20,000 nucleotides of DNA from an uncultured virus (IMG/VR IMGVR_UViG_2061766007_001638) (taxonomy: Duplodnaviria > Heunggongvirae > Uroviricota > Caudoviricetes). The position numbers and the translations under genes were made by a program. Below are positions 2,774 to 20,000 of the stretch, piece after piece (positions within the stretch are counted from its first letter, which is position 1; each line of letters starts with the position of its first letter). Location of the stretch: IMG/VR virus record IMGVR_UViG_2061766007_001638; one strand, 5' to 3'. Below the pieces are notes generated by a model that saw only the letters and a program-made list of their open reading frames with translations, did not search any database and was not told the origin of the DNA.

Positions 2774-2807
2774 CCATTCAAAAAGATGATATGATAAGGC
2801 GATTTAG

Positions 2808-3086
2808 ATGGGCAAAAAACCAATGAACACCGTAGCGGGATATCCGCTCACAGAGCACGAGGAATCATGCATCCGCTCGTTGAAGCGGCTTGCGAGGAAG
2901 TGGTACAAGAAAACGAACAGGCTTTGGCTGTTCTCTGCAAGCGGACATCTTTTTGCGATGCTTTCGGAAGGGAACGGGAATAAGGAGTCAGACTATACGC
3001 CTGGTGGTGGAGTTGGAGGAGGAAGAGTCAATAAGAACAACGCCGTTTGCGAGATAGACATTCCGAACGACGGCGGAGACTGGTAA
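2808..3086 (+). CDS. Hypothetical phage protein
   Basis: 92 aa; ...LWLFSASGHL...IDIPNDGGDW C-terminus. Confidence 0.7.
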   Translation: MGKKPMNTVAGYPLTEHEESCIRSLKRLARKWYKKTNRLWLFSASGHLFAMLSEGNGNKESDYTPGGGVGGGRVNKNNAVCEIDIPNDGGDW

Positions 3087-3103
3087 GACACAGAGGAACA
3101 CAC

Positions 3104-3556
3104 ATGAGCGTAATGACATTGAGCCTTTACAGGAAAAACTATCCGTTCATCGCATACGGAGACGAATACAAAAGGTGGAAAGAAGCAAAGAAGTGGTATG
3201 AGTGGTTGTTCGACAGGCTTCATACCGAAGGACCGACAGAATACACATGCCACGAATGGCGTGGGCTGCATCCCAAGTTCGAGTGCCACGTTAAAAGATT
3301 CAACGAGGCTTTCAAGGCACTTCCAAAACCGACAAAGGAGCAGTACAACAGTGAATGCGACCCGTTCATGGTGGGAAAGTGGCCAGAGGACGCGATTGAC
3401 CTGATAGAAAAGTTCATATTGCAGGACACGTATTGCAGGGAAGACGCAAAGAACGCCGCAGCAATCCTGACCAAGAACGACTACCAAGTGAACGTACTCA
3501 AGATGAAGCAGTATGAGTCGAACAAAGTGAAATACGGAAAGAAAAAGATGAAATGA
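3104..3556 (+). CDS. Hypothetical protein
   Basis: GAGGA RBS upstream of ATG 3104; ATGA overlap with the next gene. Confidence 0.7.
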   Translation: MSVMTLSLYRKNYPFIAYGDEYKRWKEAKKWYEWLFDRLHTEGPTEYTCHEWRGLHPKFECHVKRFNEAFKALPKPTKEQYNSECDPFMVGKWPEDAIDLIEKFILQDTYCREDAKNAAAILTKNDYQVNVLKMKQYESNKVKYGKKKMK

Positions 3557-3993
3557 CAACGAGAGAAAAGGCAATTGTGTCTGCATGGACGGGATTTTTA
3601 ATGTGTGACATGTCGGAGATGCTGAAGTACATGTCTGAAAAGCTCGGTTGGACAATAAGCGAACAGGAACTACTGAGCCGACATTGCGACTACGAGTTTG
3701 AGGACGAACTTGCCGAGAAAATCCGCCCAGATTTTCTTGCGTTATGCGACACTCTGACAACAAGAGAAAAGGCTATTGTGTCAGCGTGGGCCCATGTCTC
3801 GATGTGTAGCATGGAAGACATGCTAAAGTATCTGTCCGAAAAGTTTGGTAAGACAATAACAAAGTCAGACTTGGATAAAATCCTGTCTTATGGTGCTCTG
3901 CGACAAAAGTATGACGCCGCCGTACTTCCAGATTGGCTTTCCTTGTGCGAGGGTGACGCCGAGTCCAAAGACAAGGCGTCCTGGTGGAGATGA
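3553..3993 (+). CDS. Hypothetical protein made of two tandem ~67 aa repeats
   Basis: TTREKAIVSAW...MC.M..MLKY.SEK.G.TI occurs twice. Confidence 0.75.
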   Translation: MTTREKAIVSAWTGFLMCDMSEMLKYMSEKLGWTISEQELLSRHCDYEFEDELAEKIRPDFLALCDTLTTREKAIVSAWAHVSMCSMEDMLKYLSEKFGKTITKSDLDKILSYGALRQKYDAAVLPDWLSLCEGDAESKDKASWWR

Positions 3994-4023
3994 ATTGCAA
4001 TAGATATTGAGGAAAACAATCAA

Positions 4024-4268
4024 ATGAGCACATACAAATATTACCAAAAGGTAGAAAATAAAGTTGACGTATCTCCTTGTCCGTGCTGTGGACACGAAGA
4101 CCTCAATTTCTACGATTACAACAGAGATGAGTCGATGCACGGGGCTGGAGCTTATGTGAAATGCAAGAATTGCGGACACGAGGTCTTCGTAGACGGAAAT
4201 AAAATACAAAGCGACAGCGGAAGAATATGCCAGCTTCGCGTCATCGACGAGTGGAACAGCCAGTATAA
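4024..4268 (+). CDS. Lar-like Zn-finger protein (3' end in gap)
   Basis: PCPCCG...YVKCKNCG...IDEWN pattern; GAGGA RBS. Confidence 0.6.
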
Positions 4269-5549: not shown

Positions 5550-5984
5550 ATGGAAAAACCGCAGGAATTCTACATAATCTATTTCGTCGACAAGGACTGC
5601 GACGTAAACGGAATCCACCTTGAAAGGGGCTATTACAGGTTCAACTACGACCTGACTGGGGTCGAGTTCACAGACCCGTGCAAGTATTCGAAGGACAGGT
5701 ACGAATGGTCCGCTTGCGGTCTGTTCAAGGACCTCGGAAAGTTCCAGGAGTTCTTCAACTCGTTCGACGTCAAGCCGATGAAGATGGAGCGCGAGGAATA
5801 CATCGAGACGATAACGTACAGGGGAGTTTCCGTTCCAATATTCTGCGACGACTACGGACAATGCTTCTACTGCATATTGAACAATGAGGTTATTTCGTTC
5901 GGCTCTTTTCAGGCAGAGTACGAAGAAGAGGTCAAGGCTTTGATTGACTACAAGATTGACAAAATCGTAAAGGAGAGAACATGA
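5550..5984 (+). CDS. Hypothetical protein
   Basis: MEKPQEFYIIYF...DDYGQCFY...; ATGA overlap with the next gene. Confidence 0.7.
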   Translation: MEKPQEFYIIYFVDKDCDVNGIHLERGYYRFNYDLTGVEFTDPCKYSKDRYEWSACGLFKDLGKFQEFFNSFDVKPMKMEREEYIETITYRGVSVPIFCDDYGQCFYCILNNEVISFGSFQAEYEEEVKALIDYKIDKIVKERT

Positions 5985-6364
5985 AAGTTGAGAAATTCAA
6001 GGAAAAGTACGAAGCACTTCAGAAAGAAGGAAACGACATCTACGTCCAGATTAAGCCCCTTCTCAAGCGGCTTAAGTCCTTGACTAGGAAATGCAACAAT
6101 CTTGGAAACAAGGCCGATGGAGACCCAAACTTGTACGAGAGAATAGTCGTAACAAGGAAAGACGACAGGGGGTACGAAGGACCAAACAAGATTTCAATTA
6201 CGAAGGGTTGGGACGAAAGCGTCCTTTTCAGGCTTTGGGACATGGACGTTCTTGTAACCGAGCCGAACGTGATAGATTGCATAGACAATGTTCTGTACAA
6301 TATTACGCATACAAAGTTTGAGAAGAAAACTCAAAGAAGAAAAAATAACGAAATGGCTGGATAG
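5981..6364 (+). CDS. Hypothetical protein
   Basis: AGGAG RBS, 127 aa. Ends at a TAG lying inside the tRNA gene, so the 3' end is uncertain. Confidence 0.65.
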   Translation: MKVEKFKEKYEALQKEGNDIYVQIKPLLKRLKSLTRKCNNLGNKADGDPNLYERIVVTRKDDRGYEGPNKISITKGWDESVLFRLWDMDVLVTEPNVIDCIDNVLYNITHTKFEKKTQRRKNNEMAG

Positions 6365-6429
6365 GCTAAGTAGTAGACCACGGCCCTCATAAGGCCAGGA
6401 TGGAGATGCAAACGCTCCTCCAGCCACCA
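6355..6429 (+). tRNA. tRNA with CAT anticodon (Met or Ile2), structurally degenerate
   Basis: Acceptor stem GGCTGGA/TCCAGCC plus ACCA; anticodon arm GGCC-CTCATAA-GGCC; T arm GGAG(A)-TGCAAAC-(G)CTCC; 75 nt; mismatches in D, anticodon and T stems. Confidence 0.75.
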
Positions 6430-6448
6430 AAAAGAAAGNNNNNNNNNN

Positions 6449-6611
6449 CAGGAAACACGACGAGTTCGAATATGACGTTCAGGTTCTTGCCTTGGCTTGT
6501 TCCACACTGTGGAGCGAAAAGGAGGGATGGAGGGAGAAATACATGAATCTCGCTGACAGGTACATCAACCATCTCGACAAGTTGAATGAAGATTTGAGGA
6601 AAATGCTTTAA
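6449..6611 (+). repeat. Diverged second copy of the 3' part of gene 4651-4913
   Basis: RKHDEFEYDVQVLALACSTLWSEKEGWREKYMNLADRYINHLDKLNEDLRKML*; nearly identical DNA to ~4760-4913. Confidence 0.85.
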
Positions 6612-8291: not shown

Positions 8292-8699
8292 AAGATTCAG
8301 AAACCAGAGGAACAATCAGACCACTACGAACTTTTCGTAGAAGGAGACTGGAACGACGCAGACTACGTAAGAAAAAAAACCTCTGTAAATAAGAAAGAGT
8401 TTGAAAACGACGACTTTCTCCTGTATTTCATCTCGTACATCTCGACATGGGCTGGACGTCGTGTAGATGGGTATTTCAACGAGACGGAGGACTGGATGGA
8501 GTTCTTTGATGACGACGACATCCAGTATGAATATCTTCCAAGCGGGTATAATGCCAATATCCACACGATAACCGAGGTGAAGCTCGAGTACGTGTCTGGA
8601 ACGAAAAGATATCCAGTCAGCATACCGAGCTGGGGTTGTCTCTTCAAGGACAAAGCCGAGAAAAAGGCAAAGGTCATCGAGGCAAAGAACAGGGAATAA
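8292..8699 (+). CDS. Hypothetical protein, 5' partial
   Basis: Frame open from the gap edge: KIQKPEEQSDHYELFVEGDWNDADYV...EAKNRE*. Confidence 0.7.
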   Translation, partial: KIQKPEEQSDHYELFVEGDWNDADYVRKKTSVNKKEFENDDFLLYFISYISTWAGRRVDGYFNETEDWMEFFDDDDIQYEYLPSGYNANIHTITEVKLEYVSGTKRYPVSIPSWGCLFKDKAEKKAKVIEAKNRE

Positions 8700-8708
8700 T
8701 AAACACAC

Positions 8709-8783
8709 GGTCGGTTAGCTCAGAGGAAGAGCGTCTGCTTTACACGCAGGATGTCGGGATTTCGAAATTCTCACCGACCACCA
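8709..8783 (+). tRNA. tRNA-Val (TAC)
   Basis: GGTCGGT/ACCGACC acceptor plus ACCA; D arm GCTC-AGAGGAA-GAGC; anticodon arm TCTGC-TTTACAC-GCAGG; T arm GGGAT-TTCGAAA-TTCTC. Confidence 0.95.
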
Positions 8784-8791
8784 GAAACGCC

Positions 8792-9124
8792 ATGACGAAC
8801 AAATTAAAGGAAATCCTGAAGCTCCTCCAAGAGAGGTGCGGAATAACCTATCACTCGTATGCAAACAACATCGGAAAACATACCGTCGGCCTTAAAAAGG
8901 GACATGTTCCTTACAATCCGATGTTCATTGGACTAGACTTTTACCCTCATTCCTGGACGGAAAAAAAGGAAATCTCTGGAGTGTATACGGAATTCTCGGA
9001 CGACACGGAGGGGTCCCTGTGGAAAATCCTCTCCAACGGGATGGCAATGAACATGGCGTTCAACCTTCCAGCGGTGACGTCCGTCCAGGAGCTCAGGATG
9101 TTTCTCGACATAGCTGGAAGATAA
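8792..9124 (+). CDS. Hypothetical protein with the shared C-terminal ELxMxLDIxG motif
   Basis: MTNKLKEILK...FNLPAVTSVQELRMFLDIAGR*; lies between tRNA-Val and tmRNA. Confidence 0.7.
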   Translation: MTNKLKEILKLLQERCGITYHSYANNIGKHTVGLKKGHVPYNPMFIGLDFYPHSWTEKKEISGVYTEFSDDTEGSLWKILSNGMAMNMAFNLPAVTSVQELRMFLDIAGR

Positions 9125-9131
9125 CATTAAC

Positions 9132-9463
9132 GGGCCCGAACTAGTATCGATTGGCGGATGTTAGGATGGTGTTATGTATGCAGAAGTTGGTCAAATGGCT
9201 TCTTTAAAAATTGACCGAAATTCAAATGAGGCAGATTATGCTCTCGCTGCTTGATTGAAACATATCAGTAAGACAGCAGTCATACGCGAAAGGTCGTGTG
9301 CAAGTAACGCGTCTGGCTTAATATACAAGCACAACAATCTCGGAGTGTGGGAACGTCCGAAGATTGCCATTTCCACAAAATCATCCAGGAGTAATTGTCC
9401 TGTCTGTACTGGATGAAAACAAGACGGACATAAGCATATGACCAAGCAACGTTTAAACCCGAG
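9132..9463 (+). ncRNA. ssrA: tmRNA (3' end lost in gap)
   Basis: 5' GGGCCCGAACTAGTATCGA; pseudoknot PK1 (AGAAG/CTTCT with TTGGTCAA/TTGACCGA, ~9182-9218); tag ORF (E)ADYALAA-TGA ending at 9254; TAAGCATATGA near the 3' side. Confidence 0.88.
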
Positions 9464-9612
9464 NNNNNNNNNNNNNNNNNNNNNNNNNNNNNNNNNNNNN
9501 NNNNNNNNNNNNNNNNNNNNNNNNNNNNNNNNNNNNNNNNNNNNNNNNNNNNNNNNNNNNNNNNNNNNNNNNNNNNNNNNNNNNNNNNNNNNNNNNNNNN
9601 NNNNNNNNNNNA

Positions 9613-9954
9613 AAGTCTAAATATGAATATATGGGTTAGGTACTTGAAAAGATGAAGGGCGCTAATGAAAAAGTCATAAGAATGGTAATATCTGGACTTA
9701 AAATAGAGCCTGGAAGGGACAAATGGATACCATTACATAAATGGGAAGAAGACGTAAAGAACGGCAACGTTGGGGATGTCCCTAAGGAATAGGAAATCAA
9801 GGATTAGACTAATGCAATCTAGATACTAAAGGGTATTTACGGCTANNNNNNNNNNNNNNNNNNNNNNNNNNGTATTTCACGGATTATTGAAGCTTTCAAT
9901 AAGATACTTAACTTAATAATCAAACGACAATCAACAAACGCGGTCCGCCCTTAA
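9613..9954 (+). CDS. Hypothetical protein visible only with TAG read-through, 5' partial
   Basis: KSKYEYMG*VLEKMKGANEKVIRMVISGLKIEPGRDKWIPLHKWEEDVKNGNVGDVPKE*EIKD*TNAI*ILKGIYG; all four stops are TAG (9637, 9790, 9805, 9820). 3' end after the small gap is uncertain. Confidence 0.65.
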
Positions 9955-10010
9955 TCTGGGCGGACCTAATTTTGATGGGACTGTCTGCTTCAGACAGGCT
10001 TTTTGTTTTT
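9942..10010. terminator. Two hairpins between convergent genes; intrinsic terminator(s)
   Basis: GGTCCGCCC-TTAATCT-GGGCGGACC (9942-9966) and CTGTCTG-CTT-CAGACAG (9981-9997) followed by GCTTTTTGTTTTT. Confidence 0.7.
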
Positions 10011-10021
10011 GCTCCTAGATT

Positions 10022-10357
10022 TCAAACAGAATTGGATTTTCGTCTTTTTCTTGTTATCATCCGAGCTGGACGGACTGGCTTCACTATTGCGTCCTCGTCC
10101 TGAACGTTTGGNNNNNNNNNNNNNNNNNNNNNNNNNNNNNNNNNNNNNNNNNNNNNNNNNNNTATCGGAATTTCTTCATCTTCATGGATTTCAGGAGCAA
10201 TGTATGTGAACATAAGAGCATCATCCACAATTCTGTCCAGCATTTCCACTATGACCTGGCGATTTTGCTCCGACATATGATAGAAGTCAATCCTGTTCGC
10301 GAACTTCGCAACATCTCTGAGAACTTCAACTTTTTCCTGGTTTGTCTAGGAGAACAT
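10022..10357 (-). CDS. Hypothetical protein with one in-frame TAG
   Basis: MFS*TNQEKVEVLRDVAKFANRIDFYHMSEQNRQVIVEMLDRIVDD...; TAG at 10346-10348; basic C-terminal tail; spans a gap. Confidence 0.6.
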
Positions 10358-10424
10358 GGAATNNNNNNNNNNNNNNNNNNNNNNNNNNNNNNNNNNNNNN
10401 NNNNNNNNNNNNNNNNNNNNNNNN

Positions 10425-11998
10425 CTTTCAATTAGAGTGTCTGGACATACGACCCTGAAATGCCCCTCTTTTTCTCCAGCGTGCATGAACGCGCTGAGAT
10501 TCCTATCGTTGTATGATATCTGCCCAGTTGTGTTGTAAAGGTCTGGGTCTGCGAACTGCGGGACAGTCTATAAATCCTGTCCAAGGTTCAGTACCTTCAA
10601 GGATGGACATCCTCCCCCTCCGTGAAACGCAAATCCGAATATGACGGAAATATTATTGCATTCCACATATTCCAGGTTTGAACAATTGCCGAACGCATGT
10701 GACGGTATGGTGGTGCATTTCGGGAGAAAGGCCGTTCTGAGGTTTGCCATGTTCCTGAAAGTTCCAGCATTGGAATAATCGTCCTCTTTCATCTCCTTCA
10801 ATTCTGTCAGTTCTGGAAGGTACAGGTATTTGAGACCAGCCCCCTGGTCAGCTGTCTGGCTTCCGAACGCAAGTCCGTCCATTGTCTTTACGTTTTCGAG
10901 GTTGGCCGAAGAAAGTCTAAGATTTCGATAGAAAGTGTATTTCTCTATTGAGGACAGGTTTCTGGTGTCAATGTGTCTTAGGTTGTAGCACTGGTTAAAT
11001 CCGTATGCTCCGATGGAAGACAGATTTGGATTGGTTATACACCTAAGCTAATTGCAGTTTTGGAACTTTCTGGTTCCTATTGAATCTGCGTTCTGTAGAA
11101 CGACTTCTCCCCATACGTTTGAAAGGTTTATCTGGGAAGCGTCTGATGACAGGACTATAGGGAGAGTTACTCCTTGTACCGAGGCATATCCAAATCCAGT
11201 GAGGGACTGTACGCTAAGTTCCTTTAAGCTGTTTACATTGTACAAACCGTAATCATCTATGTGTTTTGCGTTTCTTGCGTCAAGTTTCTAAATTCCATTG
11301 TCTCCCGTCTGTTCGTATTGTCCTTCTGTTGTCACGAAAGCAGTCGGAATCGATGACAATTGAGGAACGTATACTCTTCTTATGTTTTCATTAGCATAAA
11401 GGCTGTATTGTCCAGCGGTTTTTAGTTTTGGGAGCGACGCGTCGTGGATGTCGCAATATAAAAATGCAAATTCTCCTATGCTCTCAACTTCTGGAAAATA
11501 AATTTCTCTCAAGTTACTGCAATTATCAAACCCGCCTACATCTATTTCCTTGATTTTCGGTCCGACCACCAATGTCTGATTGTCAGACCTATATCCAGCA
11601 CAATAAAAAGAATATTCTCCTATATGCGTAACGTTTGGCATGAAGATTGTCTCTACCGTTTCTATGTAGGAGTTCCATTCTTCTGGGTCGCAGAATGCAT
11701 AGTCCGCGACGCTCAGGACGTTCTGTCCGCAGTAAATCCCAACTACGTCCGACAGCGCATGCTATCCGTCCTACGACATTATACTTTCCCTTGTCAGTAT
11801 TCCGTCTGGAACCTCGAACATCTGCTTTGTTCCGTCTGAAAAAACGACTACCGTGCACGAAACGAGCTGGTTTATGTCGTCGTTGAGCCTATGTTCTCCG
11901 AACGTCTTCGGGCTGTTGGCAGCATACGTATAAGATGAAAGGTTAAGCCCAGCTATATTGCTCTGTATCCAGACAAGCCTGTTTTCTTCGATATTCAT
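10425..11998 (-). CDS. BspA-family (LRR_5 / TpLRR) leucine-rich repeat protein, TAG-recoded, 3' end in gap
   Basis: One frame of ~525 codons interrupted only by 5 TAGs (11771, 11762, 11288, 11048, 10568). LRR_5 repeats (FDNCSNLREIYFPEVESIGEFAF; FQNCN*LRCITNPNLSSIGAYGFNQCYNL; AFGNCSNLEYV) run across the TAGs. Confidence 0.9.
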
Positions 11999-12003
11999 GC
12001 CAT

Positions 12004-12010
12004 TATTTAC
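12004..12010 (-). promoter_or_regulatory. GTAAATA candidate late promoter for the LRR gene
   Basis: Minus strand reads GGTAAATAATGGCATG; motif recurs upstream of other recoded genes. Confidence 0.55.
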
Positions 12011-12030
12011 CTTTCCGTATTTAGGAATGC

Positions 12031-12047
12031 GTATAATATTCAACATG
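12031..12047 (+). promoter_or_regulatory. -10 box with ATG 7 nt downstream (leaderless-type start)
   Basis: GTATAATATTCAACATG, identical to 14348-14364. Confidence 0.6.
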
Positions 12048-12431
12048 AGCAGAGTAAGAAATTTCAACACGCTTGGAAAGAGCGGAATTCCGCGTCCTCC
12101 CTCAAAGGCGGACATCGAGGCGGTCAACAGGAAAAGGGCAGAGGAGGAAAAGAANNNNNNNNNNNNNNNNNNNNNNNNNNNNNNNNNNAAGGCGGCTTCT
12201 TTCATCTACACCCTCGGGGCGTTGGCCGAAAGCTACGACGGAAACCTGAAGGCGCTCGTGTGGGACTTCTACGTCGACCTCATGGAATGCATGAAACGCG
12301 GTTCTGGCCANNNNNNNNNNNNNNNNNNNNNNNCTCTCACTCACCTGAAAGAGTATCTCGCAACGTGCGGGAATCCTCTGTTCGCTGAGCCGCAGAAAGA
12401 AGAAAAAGATTCCGATTCCGAGGGTAAATAA
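12045..12431 (+). CDS. Hypothetical protein
   Basis: MSRVRNFNTLGKSGIPRPP...DSDSEGK*; spans two gaps; no TAG seen. Confidence 0.65.
   Translation: MSRVRNFNTLGKSGIPRPPSKADIEAVNRKRAEEEKXXXXXXXXXXXXKAASFIYTLGALAESYDGNLKALVWDFYVDLMECMKRGSGXXXXXXXXXLTHLKEYLATCGNPLFAEPQKEEKDSDSEGK
12424..12430 (+). promoter_or_regulatory. GTAAATA candidate late promoter for the kinase-like gene
   Basis: GGTAAATAACGTTTATCTATG; 10 nt before ATG 12441. Confidence 0.55.
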
Positions 12432-12440
12432 CGTTTATCT

Positions 12441-13357
12441 ATGGAAAACGACAAAACTGCCAATGTAAAGTTCATGACCAGGGAACAGCTCCTTGAACTG
12501 GCAAAGAACTATGAACCGATATCAGTTCAGGAAGAAGGAGGTTCTGGGAGCATTCTCAGACAGTTCTGCATAGGCGCATACTCGTCAATGAAGGGTTTTA
12601 AGAGGACGAGGACCAACACAAGCGAATCCGCCAAGGCCGCAAGCGCAGTCAGGAATTACGTAAGGAAAACCCCAGAGTTCCAGAAAGTTATGAGATTCGT
12701 CGGAATGGGTTCATCGAGAATTNNNNNNNNNNNNNNNGCATTGAAGTTTGCGTACAACCAGGCTGGGATAGCTCAGAACAAGAAGGAGATATTCCTTGTT
12801 CAGCAGAAGGGAGAAAATAGCCTTCCTTGCTTCCCGAAAGTCTATGACCACACTGACGACTGGAGAGGAATGCTCGTCGAATGTTGCTCCCCCATAAGCG
12901 AGGAAGACTTTCGCGTGTACAGACCACTCGGGGATTTTTAGAACCTAACGATGGCGATATAGTGCATAGTCGACGAGAAAAAGCTGTTTTTCAGGGGGAA
13001 CACGCTTGGCCTTGCAAAAAACGTGACATATTCCACAATAGGGAAATACCTCAGCGAATACATAGAGGGGACGGACAAATACACCACAATATACGGAAAT
13101 TTCGTAGACAGCCTGCTCAATTCCGAAAAACGCCAGTGGAACAGTTTGAGGTCACTTATTTAGATACTCTTCAAGTTCTCGGACGACAGCGTGATGGCAG
13201 ACTTGATGAACATGGAGAATTGGGGCCTTGCCATCGACAGGGAAAGCGGAGAGGTGACTCCAGTCGTGGTGGACATGGGCTTCGACNNNNNNNNNNNNNN
13301 NNNNNNNNNNNNNNNNNNNNNNNNNNNNNNNNNNNNNNNNNNCGTGGTTCACTGTAA
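12441..13357 (+). CDS. Protein-kinase-like fold protein, TAG-recoded
   Basis: Gly loop VGMGSSR, beta3 ALK, alphaC AQNKKE, PKVYD, catalytic-loop-like DLMNMENWG and DFG-like VVVDMGFD. The stretch from ALK to DMGFD is one frame interrupted only by TAG at 12939, 12960 and 13161. End lies in or just after the gap (TAA 13355-13357 assumed). Confidence 0.75.
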
Positions 13358-13360
13358 ATA
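13354..13360 (+). promoter_or_regulatory. GTAAATA candidate late promoter
   Basis: 24 nt upstream of ATG 13385. Confidence 0.5.
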
Positions 13361-13384
13361 TTCTAAAGACAGGATATTTCAAAA

Positions 13385-13858
13385 ATGGCTATCAAGGACA
13401 AAATAATGGTCTAGAGGGACATACACCTCGAGAGGATTAACAAGTCAAAAAGCCTTTCCAACGAGGAAAAGGTCTCTCTGACTGGACTTGTCGTGGACGC
13501 GGCTGAAGGCACCAACGGACTTACCGAGCACGACAAGATACAGAACGTGTCCGAGACAACGTTTCTCCTTGCTACGGCGATGGTGAACCTGACGGAACAG
13601 CTGAACGAAAACAACGTCCTCACGGCCAAAGTAGCGGACAAGATAGACGCGCTAGAACTCCAGAGAAAGGACAGCCAGAAAAAATACGAGGACCTCGTCG
13701 AGCAAGTCCGAAACAAAAGGGACATAAAGAACCTAGACTGGAAAGACACGATGAAGCTAGTTCTGGTAAAGCCGTGGTTCTGGATATTCCTCGCCGTCAC
13801 GACTTTTTCTCCGAAGGGGTTCGAGATAATACAGCTTATCCTCGATAAGGCGAAATGA
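13385..13858 (+). CDS. Coiled-coil protein with C-terminal hydrophobic segment (possible holin-like/lysis membrane protein), TAG-recoded
   Basis: AGGA RBS; MAIKDKIMV*RDIHLERINKSK...; TAG at 13412; coiled coil followed by LVLVKPWFWIFLAVTTF. Function is inferred from architecture only. Confidence 0.65.
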
Positions 13859-13888
13859 TTATTGTATTAAAATAATCGAAAACTATCA

Positions 13889-14231
13889 TTACTTTGTTTT
13901 TTTCCTTTTTCCAAGGCACAAAGACGTAAGCTATCCAAGTATGTTGTCCTAANNNNNNNNNNNNNNNNNNNNNNNNNNNNNNNNNNNNNNNNNNNNNNNN
14001 NNNNNNNNNNNNNNNNNNNNNNNNNNNNNNNNNNNNNNNNNNNGAGTCTGGGACGTATACTAGCCACGTCATGTTTCCTATTTCGACGGTGAGGCCAGAA
14101 AACTCCTCGTCGATGTTCTCTATTTCATAGCCGTACTGTCTTTTCAGGTATCCCTGAAGACGTTTTCTGTCAACGTCACGAACAAAGATTACCGTCGCGT
14201 CGAACGTTGGAATTCGGATTCTGTTCGTCAT
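13889..14231 (-). CDS. Hypothetical phage protein, probably TAG-recoded
   Basis: GGAGG RBS, MTNRIRIPTFDATVIFV...LVYVPD, then gap, then probable tail *DNILG*LTSLCLGKRKKTK-TAA (TAG 13949, 13931). Frame across the gap is uncertain. Confidence 0.6.
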
Positions 14232-14312
14232 GTTCAACCTCCAATTCGGGTCATGTTCAGGACATGACCAGTATATCCGTAATCGTTCATTCGCGTAATC
14301 TCTTATTTGGAA

Positions 14313-14319: not shown

Positions 14320-14347
14320 TCCATGATTGGAGATTCCTTAGGACCAG

Positions 14348-14364
14348 GTATAATATTCAACATG
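14348..14364 (+). promoter_or_regulatory. -10 box with ATG 7 nt downstream (leaderless-type start)
   Basis: GTATAATATTCAACATG; TTGGAG 16 nt upstream of TATAAT as a possible -35. Confidence 0.6.
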
Positions 14365-14969
14365 GAAAACCAGATTAACATGATGCAGGTAATCTCACTG
14401 TCTGTGGCTGGGGTGCTTCTGTTTGCAACCCTTGCGTGGCTATACATAAAGCGTCAATACAGGCTGTTTTGTATGAGAGAGGACCAGAAAGACAAGATAA
14501 ACGTCTTGAGAAAGCAGATAGAATCTGCAAGGGATTACGTCAGAAAGACCTACAACACCCCCTTCGATACGTCAATCCAGGACAACATAATCCCTAAAAT
14601 GGAGTTCATAGAGAAACTTATATTGAAAAAAGACCCGTCAGACCAGGAAAAGGAGCTCAAGTTCCTCCTCGACATGCTTACAGAAACTTTCATAAGACTC
14701 AGGGAGAATTTCAACGACGTAGGTTCGATAGTTGCCCCCCTGAACAGCCTAAGGGACAGGCTCGTCCAGGAGCACATCCAGTTCATCAAGGACCACATGC
14801 CAGAGGAATNNNNNNNNNNNNNNNNNNNNNNNNNNNNNNNNNNNNNNNNNNNNNNNNNNNNNNNNNNNNGGTGCCTGAAAAGAATCCTGTCGGCCTCCCG
14901 TTCAAGCATGTCCCTGTAGTTCTGAAGTCCCTCGTCCGTGAGCTCATGAAGGTTCTGGAACGTCTTTGA
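14362..14969 (+). CDS. Membrane-anchored coiled-coil protein
   Basis: N-terminal TM VISLSVAGVLLFATLAWLYI. After the gap the more natural frame is VPEKNPVGLPFKHVPVVLKSLVRELMKVLERL-TGA. Confidence 0.7.
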
Positions 14970-15890: not shown

Positions 15891-15932
15891 ATGAACCTGA
15901 TTACTGGAAAGTTTCAGTCAATTCCAACAACT

Positions 15933-16562
15933 ATGATTTTCATAATTCTATTCTCAGTCGCAACTCTCTACATCTTGATGACCATTATCACGCTTGGTCT
16001 GTGGTGGTACTGTTTCGGGGAGAGACATCCGAAGATGGACATGGTCGACTCTTTCGACGAGATGCTTGATTCCATAAAGTTCTACGAGTCTAAATGGCAG
16101 GGAATATGCGGGTGGGGGTGGCCGATTTTCATATTGCCACTCATGGTGGTTGGAATCGTAAGGGCTTTTGGATGGAGGCTCNNNNNNNNNNNNNNNNNNN
16201 NNNNNNNNNNNTTTTCGGGGGAGATGGTTGAAATCTTCCGAATATTGAAGAAATTCCTGGATTTTGTGCCAAACGTCAAAATCGGGAAGTTCTGCGGGCT
16301 CTATCTCTCGTTCAGGTTCAGAAACAGGAAAAAGGACACCGTGTTCTTTGAAAACATTATGGCCGCTACCATGTTCGCGGAAGACGTCAAGACCCTTGAA
16401 AAAATGGTGTTCAAAACTCTTGGGAACGGGAACTCGAACCCATTCATCTTTGACGAAGACCTCGGAATGAACATGAGGTGGAACATCCCATCGTTTTCAA
16501 CGGCTGAGGAATTGAGGATGAAACTGGAACTTGCAGGATACGGGACTCGGAATAATAGATAA
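15933..16562 (+). CDS. Two-TM membrane protein with the shared C-terminal motif
   Basis: MIFIILFSVATLYILMTIITLGLWW...WGWPIFILPLMVVGIV...WNIPSFSTAEELRMKLELAGYGTRNNR*; spans a gap. Confidence 0.65.
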   Translation: MIFIILFSVATLYILMTIITLGLWWYCFGERHPKMDMVDSFDEMLDSIKFYESKWQGICGWGWPIFILPLMVVGIVRAFGWRLXXXXXXXXXXFSGEMVEIFRILKKFLDFVPNVKIGKFCGLYLSFRFRNRKKDTVFFENIMAATMFAEDVKTLEKMVFKTLGNGNSNPFIFDEDLGMNMRWNIPSFSTAEELRMKLELAGYGTRNNR

Positions 16563-16576
16563 TACTTTGAATTGCC

Positions 16577-17040
16577 ATGTATGCGACAACGGAAAGAGAC
16601 GAATTCCAGTATAGACTAAGGAAACTCGTTGAAGAGAGATTCCCTAAGGTTCAGGTCAGCATGATTCTCGCGCTTATGGACGACCTTCATGGAAGAGACT
16701 GGTTTCCTTCGTTCGAGGAAACCGCTATGTTCCTCGGACATTCCTTCTCGGATTCGTTCGAGATTATAGACACAAACAAGAACGGACTTTTCTTGAGGCT
16801 CTCCCTGATGGACTCTTCTGACGCGGATTTAATGGCAGAGGNNNNNNNNNNNNNNNNNNNNNNNNNNNNNNNNNNNTCGGGAAGGTGAAAACCCTTGACT
16901 GGTTGACGAAAAAACTTCCAGAAATATTCAAAGAGACCAACATGGAAAAAGTTTTCTTTGAGTTGTGCCACGGATTTGGAAAGTGGGTTTACTGGGAGAG
17001 ACGTCTCGTGTTCTGGAAAATCGGGAAAATGCTTCCATGA
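16577..17040 (+). CDS. Hypothetical protein
   Basis: MYATTERDEF...gap...GKVKTLDWLTKKLPEIF...WKIGKMLP-TGA; frame rejoined across the gap. Confidence 0.6.
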
Positions 17041-18608: not shown

Positions 18609-19334
18609 ATGGAACTTGAAAATACATACTCCAGCATTGATGAAAACTGCTGCGAAAACGACCAGTTAATCATGAATTCGTCCTCTCCGCAGGAGTTCAT
18701 GATGAAAATGTCCCTTGCTGGAAACACCATGAATGTCGATAAATGCGTCGATTTCCTGATAAAGCGGCTTTTCAACGGAAAAACGTACGACAACGACGAA
18801 AAGGAGAGTAAATTCGAGGATTCCGTTTTCAGGATTCTGTCCAAGATAAAGAAGGAAGAGCTTGTAAACAAGTACCTCATAAGCAAGCCAGCCTATGGAG
18901 CAATAATAGTCGACATTCTCAGCTGGATGTGGAGCAAGATGTCTTTCAATTCCGTGGGTTTCGTCCCGAAGTCCCCGAAACTTGACAAAGTAATCGGGAT
19001 TTCAAAGGTGATGATGAAATTCGACAAGGATTTCATCCCGTCCCTGAGGGACAAGAACGGAAACAACATGATGATGATTTTCGCCAAGATTCTGAACTTC
19101 GACAAGGCCGCGAGCTTGATTCACAGGACTGGATTTTCCTCTTCTGGATGTGCTTTCGACGAATACGTGAAGAACAGGTACGGATGCGACTTCTTCAAGT
19201 CGTTCATAGTGGACATGAAATGCGACCCGTACGCGAAGAACAACAGGGGGGAGTGCTTCGCGAACTTCTTCAGCAAGGAATTCCTGAAGGAAGACCTCGG
19301 ATACAAGGAATTTGACTTGACAGAAGAAGACTGA
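18609..19334 (+). CDS. Hypothetical protein with ankyrin-like segments and an N-terminal copy of the shared motif
   Basis: SSSPQEFMMKMSLAG near the N-terminus; LRDKNGNNMMM and DMKCDPYAKNNRGE resemble ankyrin beta-hairpin turns. Confidence 0.65.
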   Translation: MELENTYSSIDENCCENDQLIMNSSSPQEFMMKMSLAGNTMNVDKCVDFLIKRLFNGKTYDNDEKESKFEDSVFRILSKIKKEELVNKYLISKPAYGAIIVDILSWMWSKMSFNSVGFVPKSPKLDKVIGISKVMMKFDKDFIPSLRDKNGNNMMMIFAKILNFDKAASLIHRTGFSSSGCAFDEYVKNRYGCDFFKSFIVDMKCDPYAKNNRGECFANFFSKEFLKEDLGYKEFDLTEED

Positions 19335-19345
19335 AATGGTATAAT
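19317..19345 (+). promoter_or_regulatory. Consensus sigma70-type promoter with extended -10
   Basis: TTGACA, 17 nt spacer, TATAAT preceded by TGG. Confidence 0.85.
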
Positions 19346-19374
19346 ATGGAAAGACAAAACAAAGGACAAAGAAA

Positions 19375-20000
19375 ATGGCAACAGACGCAAAATTCGACAG
19401 GATACAGAAGATAGTCCCGCACGACAACGCTGACGCGCTTGAGATAGCCGTGGTGTCCAACTTCCCGTGCGTGGTCAGGAAAGGCGAGTTCAAGGCTGGG
19501 GACATCGTGTTCTACATCCGAGACGACGCCAAGCTCCTGGAGGTGAACGAATACCTTGAATGGTCGAAGGAAATGAAGAAGCCAGACGCCATGGGACCGA
19601 TGGAGTTCAACTGGAACTTCCCGTGGCAGGAGTCGCTTGTCAAGTACGTGGGCTCTGGTGCTCGAGTAAAGTCCGTAAAACTTCGCGGACGGGTCTCAAT
19701 GGGAATTCTCATAAAGATGGAGGATGCGTGCTCTGGGTACAGNNNNNNNNNNNNNNNNNNNNNNNNNNNNNNNNNNNNNNNNNNNAAGATTCTCGACCCA
19801 GAGACTGGGGACAAGTTCCTCAAGGACAATTTCGGGGTCGGCCACTGGTCGGCTCCAGTGGGAAACATCGGAAACCTGGACGTCCTTCACCAGGGGCTAG
19901 ACTTCGGACTGCAGAAGTCAGACGAGGAGAACTGGGAGAACCTTCCAGACGAAGACCTGCACATCGGGGAGAAATGCCTAGTCACTCGGAAGCTCGATGG
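19375..20000 (+). CDS. RNA ligase, DRB0094/Rnl2 family, 3' partial
   Basis: N-terminal PHDNADALEIAVV...VVRKGEFKAGD, VKSVKLRGRVSMG, KSDEEN, and nucleotidyltransferase motif I TRKLDG at the window end. Confidence 0.88.
   Translation, partial: MATDAKFDRIQKIVPHDNADALEIAVVSNFPCVVRKGEFKAGDIVFYIRDDAKLLEVNEYLEWSKEMKKPDAMGPMEFNWNFPWQESLVKYVGSGARVKSVKLRGRVSMGILIKMEDACSGYXXXXXXXXXXXXXXXKILDPETGDKFLKDNFGVGHWSAPVGNIGNLDVLHQGLDFGLQKSDEENWENLPDEDLHIGEKCLVTRKLD

Follow-up and report, generated by a model that had tools for sequence, protein, structure and literature searches.

Does the phage behind the IMG/VR record IMGVR_UViG_2061766007_001638, an uncultured virus of the Caudoviricetes, read the amber codon TAG as an amino acid, and if so, as which one? 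The question is raised by a block of genes at 9613-14237 of the 20,000-nucleotide stretch of this record that was analysed as a whole (the window), in which open reading frames (ORFs) share frames and appear to be broken only by TAG. TAG recoding in phages has been described since 2014. An earlier reading of the letters alone (the original prediction) had proposed that six genes of the block are interrupted in this manner and that TAG is read as glutamine (Gln, Q). Our results make it quite probable that the window belongs to a large ruminant-gut phage in which five to six genes at 9613-14237, forming a strand-switched module, use TAG as a sense codon, most likely for Gln (genetic code 15). 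Nearly all genes outside 9.6-14.3 kb were found on the plus strand. The module would comprise a leucine-rich-repeat (LRR) protein, a putative kinase-like protein and small proteins of no known function.

The count of in-frame TAG codons was the starting point. The LRR gene, which lies on the minus strand (10425..11998), contains five of them (plus-strand 11771-11773, 11762-11764, 11288-11290, 11048-11050 and 10568-10570), the kinase-like gene (12441..13406, plus strand) contains three (12939, 12960 and 13161) and the gene at 9613 (9613..9845, plus strand) contains four (9637, 9790, 9805 and 9820). One each was found in the minus-strand gene that begins at 10357 (10348-10346) and in the plus-strand gene at 13385 (13412). 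These numbers agreed with the original prediction for all five genes. For the sixth gene, at 14231, two TAGs had been given with the warning that the frame was uncertain across a gap, and the open frame there (13836-14237) has none. The statement that six genes are interrupted by TAG only therefore holds for five genes and 14 of the 16 TAGs. The five frames comprise 1,184 codon positions, 1,143 of them without N, and their sequenced stretches hold 14 TAG, no TAA, no TGA and no frameshift, as had been claimed. Off-frame, the same five stretches contain 41 TAA, 50 TGA (91 TAA and TGA together) and 34 TAG. The probability that all 14 interruptions would be TAG was 1.1e-10 under the stop-triplet mix of the window (TAG 240 of 1,228) and about 1e-8 under the off-frame mix of the same ORFs (34 of 125). 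Since frames that stay open when TAG is sense were the ones selected, there is some circularity in both probabilities, and more weight was therefore given to homology and to other tests of read-through. The longest open stretch in the block grew from 159 to 576 codons, with TAG as sense only.

The frames themselves had to be judged against the gaps of the assembly. The window contains 25 runs of N with 2,431 bases in total. All sampled words of the LRR stretch were found in a sequencing run (X1) labelled as bovine gut metagenome, which may be the source sample of the window. Contigs of X1 aligned to the block end at the N-runs, and four N-runs were bridged with net differences of -5, +8, +9 and -9 letters; the bridged runs include 9846-9871, 10112-10162, 12723-12737 and 13287-13342. 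These differences show that the N-runs stand for assembly gaps but misstate their length, and reading frames drawn across gaps are therefore not trustworthy. The frame of the kinase-like gene is kept across both of its gaps, since both length differences are multiples of three, and frames are not kept across 9846-9871 and 10112-10162. All 14 confirmed TAGs lie within sequenced stretches.

Homology across the TAGs provided the independent support. The original prediction had remarked that domain patterns continue through these codons. In the 772-residue read-through of the LRR gene, the TAG at residue 431 falls within an LRR_5 stretch (residues 416-494). The kinase-like protein showed 61% identity to the database protein P0001 over 236 residues, unbroken through all three TAG positions. 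We aligned the window protein with 38 of its 99 relatives (P0001 and 37 others); many of these have lengths near 270 residues and span positions 11-285 of the query. N260, D278 and G280 were invariant and D254, W261 and G262 nearly so, and all of them are past the last TAG at residue 241. Under the standard code (code 11) the product would stop at residue 166. The conserved parts can therefore be made only if translation continues through the TAGs.

Selection on the gene at 13385 pointed in the same direction. A contig of another study (X3) covers 13374-13590 with 31 differences in 217 bases. In the 13385 frame, 19 of the 25 listed differences occupied third codon positions (P for at least 18 = 9e-5). 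In the 78 bases from the TAG to the first possible code-11 start, 10 of 15 differences were third-position (P = 0.0085). Among the differences listed none fell at 13412-13414, with the neighbours 13411 and 13421 both listed, and the TAG at 13412-13414 is likely conserved in the X3 variant. The use of TAG as terminator was also rare in this small sample of genes: 26 complete flanking genes end with TGA in 17 cases, TAA in 7 and TAG in 2, and the four block genes with a visible end use TGA or TAA and never TAG. Evidently, TAG is read as a sense codon in five genes of the block.

To which amino acid TAG corresponds was approached through relatives. The protein encoded at 2-808 led to G001, a 433,895-bp IMG/VR contig with terminal repeats (72% amino-acid identity), and the T4-like portal of G001 led to the complete genomes G002 (418,068 bp) and G003 (414,060 bp). 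Twelve of the 34 window ORFs had homologues in these three genomes at 30-95% amino-acid identity, nearly all of them from the left 8.4 kb. The three genomes and the window are similar in GC content (0.45 against 0.47-0.48). The right-hand 5.7 kb of the window is without a homologue in them. In the relatives, TAG serves as a sense codon genome-wide. In G001, 172 of 383 greedy ORFs hold 445 in-frame TAGs, including ORFs of 4,834, 3,591, 3,356 and 2,147 codons. Pfam families were assigned to 13 of the 56 ORFs with at least three TAGs, among them the terminase, the T4-type portal (E = 5e-64) and a gp15-like sheath stabiliser, and the matches of the portal and gp15-like proteins run across TAGs. 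The crude open-frame cover of G001 rose from 0.82 to 0.89 with TAG as sense (0.88 with TGA as sense). The G001 terminase is T4-like: among the best 12 of 2,994 records it matched only T4-like phages, and its identity to cultured phages did not exceed 32-34%.

The three genomes were then compared with each other by best-hit ORF pairs of at least 50% identity in which TAG was masked as X, each TAG being counted against at most two genomes. In 267 columns from 109 ORFs, the residues facing TAG were Q 119, K 25, E 19, T 15, D 15, S 13, N 11 and Y 10. The codons facing TAG were CAG 90, TAG 59, CAA 29, AAG 20, GAG 10 and TAT plus TAC 10; CAA, which is two changes away from TAG, thus exceeded TAT plus TAC. 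With substitution spectra taken from the same alignments, the log-likelihood was -603 for Q, -944 for E and -954 for K. Judged from these alignments, TAG is Gln in G001-G003, and it is most likely Gln, that is genetic code 15, in the phage of the window. The proposal of Gln in the original prediction is supported indirectly by the relatives, while the window's own columns do not show it (see below).

Candidate decoders were also found in two of the relatives. Of the 36 tRNAs predicted in G001, one has the anticodon CUA (90 nt, 410487-410576, locus L022), with a long variable arm, U1-A72 and A73. It is flanked by an ORF with 12 TAGs and by an ORF with 15 TAGs in 366 codons. G002 carries a 77-nt tRNA-CUA whose anticodon arm is the same as that of G001. 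The predicted Asn, Thr and Arg tRNAs of G001 were likewise oversized (83-91 nt). We propose that a phage-encoded suppressor tRNA with the anticodon CUA would be located elsewhere in the same genome as the window, and that it would insert Gln at TAG in competition with the release factor 1 of the host. TAG-bearing genes would then be made only once the tRNA is expressed, as in the timing model of Borges et al. (bioRxiv 10.1101/2021.08.26.457843), and the approximately 27 flanking plus-strand genes would be written for reading by the standard code of the host.

Several observations weigh against the reading of TAG as Gln by a phage-encoded suppressor, and they are given here together with the explanations that they would favour. 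The window homologues in G001-G003 are scattered rather than syntenic, and the block genes are absent there save for distant LRR proteins; the code of the relatives is therefore evidence by kinship only. It could be that TAG is a sense codon for another amino acid, for example Glu, Tyr or Lys, with a suppressor tRNA of corresponding identity. The residues of P0001 at the three window TAG columns are Y, H and G, column 241 of the kinase-like family holds D10, E6, R5, Q5 and K4, and the summed BLOSUM scores over the 38 relatives and three columns placed E first and Q second of 20. Moreover, the sole CUA tRNA of G001, with its long variable arm and A73, is unlike standard tRNA-Gln, and in overall similarity it is about equally close to the tRNAs for Leu, Arg, Gln and Ser (0.66-0.68). 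Comparing the suppressor tRNAs with other tRNAs thus did not point to Gln alone. The comparison of amino-acid composition between block and flank did not identify the residue, Q being 3.5% against 2.1% even without TAG. However, the three usable window columns are variable positions which discriminate poorly, and the gene at 9613 has four TAGs and no CAG or CAA in 71 codons, which fits Gln weakly. Q was far ahead in the relatives, and the assignments given in the published accounts of TAG-recoded gut phages that we cite are Gln. We consider another residue improbable.

A second explanation keeps Gln and dispenses with a suppressor in the phage itself, with the host cell or a co-infecting phage supplying the suppression. 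The tRNA scans found in the window only a tRNA-Val (anticodon TAC, 8709..8783, plus strand); the absence of a tRNA-CUA from the 20 kb had been stated in the original prediction and stands. G003 is complete and has many in-frame TAGs, and a tRNA-CUA was not detectable in it even at a relaxed threshold. In the passages of Borges et al. drawn on here, suppressor tRNAs are reported in only 40% of TAG-recoded genomes. Release-factor domains (PF00472) and Gln/Glu-tRNA-synthetase domains (PF00749, class Ic) were absent from G001-G003, where the controls were positive. On the other hand, a tRNA-CUA is present in two of the three complete relatives, the window is just 20 kb of a probably much larger genome, and the detection of odd phage tRNAs is imperfect. 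An exact 60-base search for that genome had no match in viral_contigs or metagenome_contigs. An external suppressor is accordingly given a slim chance.

The TAGs might also be true stops, either between short separate genes or in a decaying, horizontally acquired island of truncated genes. Public gene calling did give code-11 fragments: the public protein collection has the LRR gene only as P0015 and P0016, which correspond to 10568-10882 and 11288-11641 (104 and 117 residues). The lack of homologues of the block genes in the three relatives would suit such an island. The gain in coding density under code 15 was small, since the crude open-frame cover of the block was 0.85 under the standard code, 0.91 with TAG as sense and already 0.90 with TAA as sense. 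Decay, however, would add TAA, TGA and frameshifts, and none was found in 1,143 codons. The invariant C-terminal residues would be missing from the kinase-like protein, the LRR_5 match crosses a TAG, purifying selection is visible in the 13385 gene immediately downstream of its TAG, in a stretch that offers no code-11 start, and the TAGs are the same in contigs of another study. True stops in the block are thus very improbable. That the TAGs are sequencing or assembly artefacts, such as systematic C-to-T errors in CAG, is hardly credible: although the source assembly is gap-rich and of old date, with a shallow word depth of 6-8, the Logan re-assembly of X1 had no other letter at any covered place over five pieces (a check made with contigs), an X3 contig of a different study was identical over 11738-11912, the stretch with two TAGs, and C-to-T damage would also yield in-frame TAA (from CAA) and TGA (from CGA), neither of which was seen. 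Small shares of the LRR stretch are also present in runs X6-X20; these runs, and the parts of the block that X3-X5 leave uncovered, do not enter into this argument.

A further point of this kind came from the flank. By ORF reading, the plus-strand gene at 5981..6475 has TAG at 6362, 6371 and 6374 and the next TGA at 6473. It has homologues in the relatives: those in G001 and G002 end with TAA or TGA within about 10 residues of the first TAG, and the G003 homologue is longer. The gene thus seemingly ends at TAG, where its homologues stop. The TAG at the end of 5981-6364 is followed by two codons and then TAG TAG (6362-6376 in all), which may be a real terminator reinforced by repeats or, alternatively, the beginning of a Gln-rich extension to the TGA at 6473. 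A tentative and rather doubtful extension of our reading would give TAG two meanings separated in time. It would be the terminator for early genes, such as the 5981 gene with its three-TAG end, and would be Gln for a strand-switched accessory module (LRR, kinase-like and small membrane-like proteins) gated by the suppressor tRNA of the phage. This would take place in a ruminant-gut lineage of about 415-435 kb with a T4-like core, and the suppressor might be a tRNA-CUA that, although unusual in its long variable arm, is charged with Gln.

Reading TAG as Gln places the window beside known systems. In the passages cited, Borges et al. described 473 alternatively coded gut phages, cattle included, in which TAG aligns best with Gln and 26-71% of genes use the recoded codon, and proposed that recoding times late genes. 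According to a 2026 survey, 8.75% of rumen jumbo phages have alternative codes (PMC13037316), and metaproteomic proof of code 15 is reported for crAss-like phages (PMC9523058). The window resembles the code-15 gut phages (Lak megaphages, crAss-like phages and the clades of Borges et al.) in that TAG occurs in part of the genes only, with the rest readable under the standard code, in that TAG is rare as a terminator, in the tRNA-CUA of its relatives and in the animal-gut habitat. Unlike them, it shows no suppressor tRNA, release factor 2 (RF2) or lysis and structural genes within its limits, and the genes with TAG are the LRR gene, the kinase-like gene and small genes of no known function. Of the core genes by which kinship with Lak megaphages could be judged (terminase, portal, capsid), the window has none. 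No new kind of biology is involved: recoding is already known from large gut phages, and knowledge of how or why phages recode is unchanged by our results. What is added to the known TAG-recoded phages is a ruminant-gut lineage akin to complete IMG/VR genomes of 414-434 kb, together with an indication that the recoded codon can be limited to a small accessory module. Since standard gene calling splits the block genes, the annotation of this phage and its relatives will be wrong unless code 15 is used.

The LRR gene is the longest in the block, with 524 sequenced codons, and continues into the gap 10363-10424. Its protein matched Pfam LRR_5 (PF13306) with E = 6.1e-34 and 117.1 bits against a cut-off of 27.7, in four stretches. 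This strong match makes it similar to BspA-type LRR proteins, and G001 too has LRR_5 proteins with TAG; it differs from them in that the nearest database proteins, 13 of which were found, were only 22-27% identical. The gene had no blastn match in GenBank phages, and the protein had none in the viral_contigs collection. In 30 loose letters past 10425 from contigs of X1 and of X4, the LRR frame could be followed by eye for about nine codons, with one more TAG and no other stop; little weight is placed on this.

The kinase-like gene has 321 codons as the window stands. An exhaustive search gave 99 relatives of its protein with E values of 1e-3 or below, of which 17 reached 1e-10 or below. No match was found in viral_contigs, metagenome_contigs, G001-G005 or GenBank phages (tblastn), and the family had no Pfam family and no PDB match by sequence. 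The predicted model of a homologue, P0021, was confident, with a pLDDT of 89.5, and its top Foldseek matches were all aminoglycoside 2''-phosphotransferases (APH(2'')) or protein kinases. When the conserved columns were read by eye, features like a Gly-rich loop, a D-x5-N loop and a D-x-G motif could be made out along with a lysine and a glutamate, as in aminoglycoside 2''-phosphotransferases and Hanks-type kinases. In contrast to such enzymes, the fold scores were weak (E = 2.4e-4, TM about 0.3). The label given in the original prediction is therefore plausible for the product of 12441-13406. The window protein and P0021 belong to an uncharacterised family of about 270 residues with 99 relatives and no Pfam model.

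The remaining genes of the block are small. The gene at 9613 is open from the gap 9464-9611, its first ATG is at 9631, and its TAG count would be three if it started at ATG 9652; no Pfam or PHROG family matched it. Because the gap 9846-9871 is five letters shorter in reality, it probably ends at TGA 9888-9890 and not at TAA 9952. The minus-strand gene at 10022..10357, also of no known function and without a family match, is uncertain in its 3' part, since the gap 10112-10162 is really eight letters longer and the frame beyond it therefore differs from that of the window. The gene at 13385..13858 has 157 codons, of which the TAG at 13412-13414 is the tenth, no known function and, by eye, a hydrophobic stretch near the C-terminus. 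The minus-strand gene from 14231/14237 (13836..14237) matched no family, and the gap 13953-14043 breaks the certainty of its frame. Just outside the block, a plus-strand gene at 14323..14925 reaches TAG at 14917 with TGA two codons on, and has an N-terminal hydrophobic stretch by eye.

In the window as a whole, the genes to which a family could be assigned were phage-like: phrog_3886 (E = 3e-52), two Lar-like restriction-alleviation proteins, DUF7736 and an RNA-ligase N-terminus. Long flanking ORFs that run antisense and contain TAG (2804-4033, 15914-16741, 19002-19868 and others) were rejected as candidates: they matched no family, had a low-complexity look and lie opposite real genes. A 162-codon ORF at 8636-9124 is unlikely to be a gene: no family matched it, and it overlaps the gene for tRNA-Val (8709-8783). 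Two terminator-like hairpins were placed between convergent genes at 9942..9997 by a consensus scan only.

Directly upstream of the first TAG-bearing gene, the window stretch 9126-9446 (about 320 nt) matched G001 234915-235235 with 81% identity by blastn and 87% by MAFFT, which is well over the roughly 70% typical of shared coding genes. In both copies all six frames contain stops, and the substitutions have no codon periodicity (19/18/24). The RNA fold z-score was -2.49 and no Rfam family matched. This stretch may be a conserved leader, a promoter region or a non-coding RNA. In G001 itself, a TnpB/IS605 OrfB-like gene was found at locus L020 (745-2415), with Cas12f1-like TNB, OrfB_IS605 and HTH domains and three in-frame TAGs in a long N-terminal extension.

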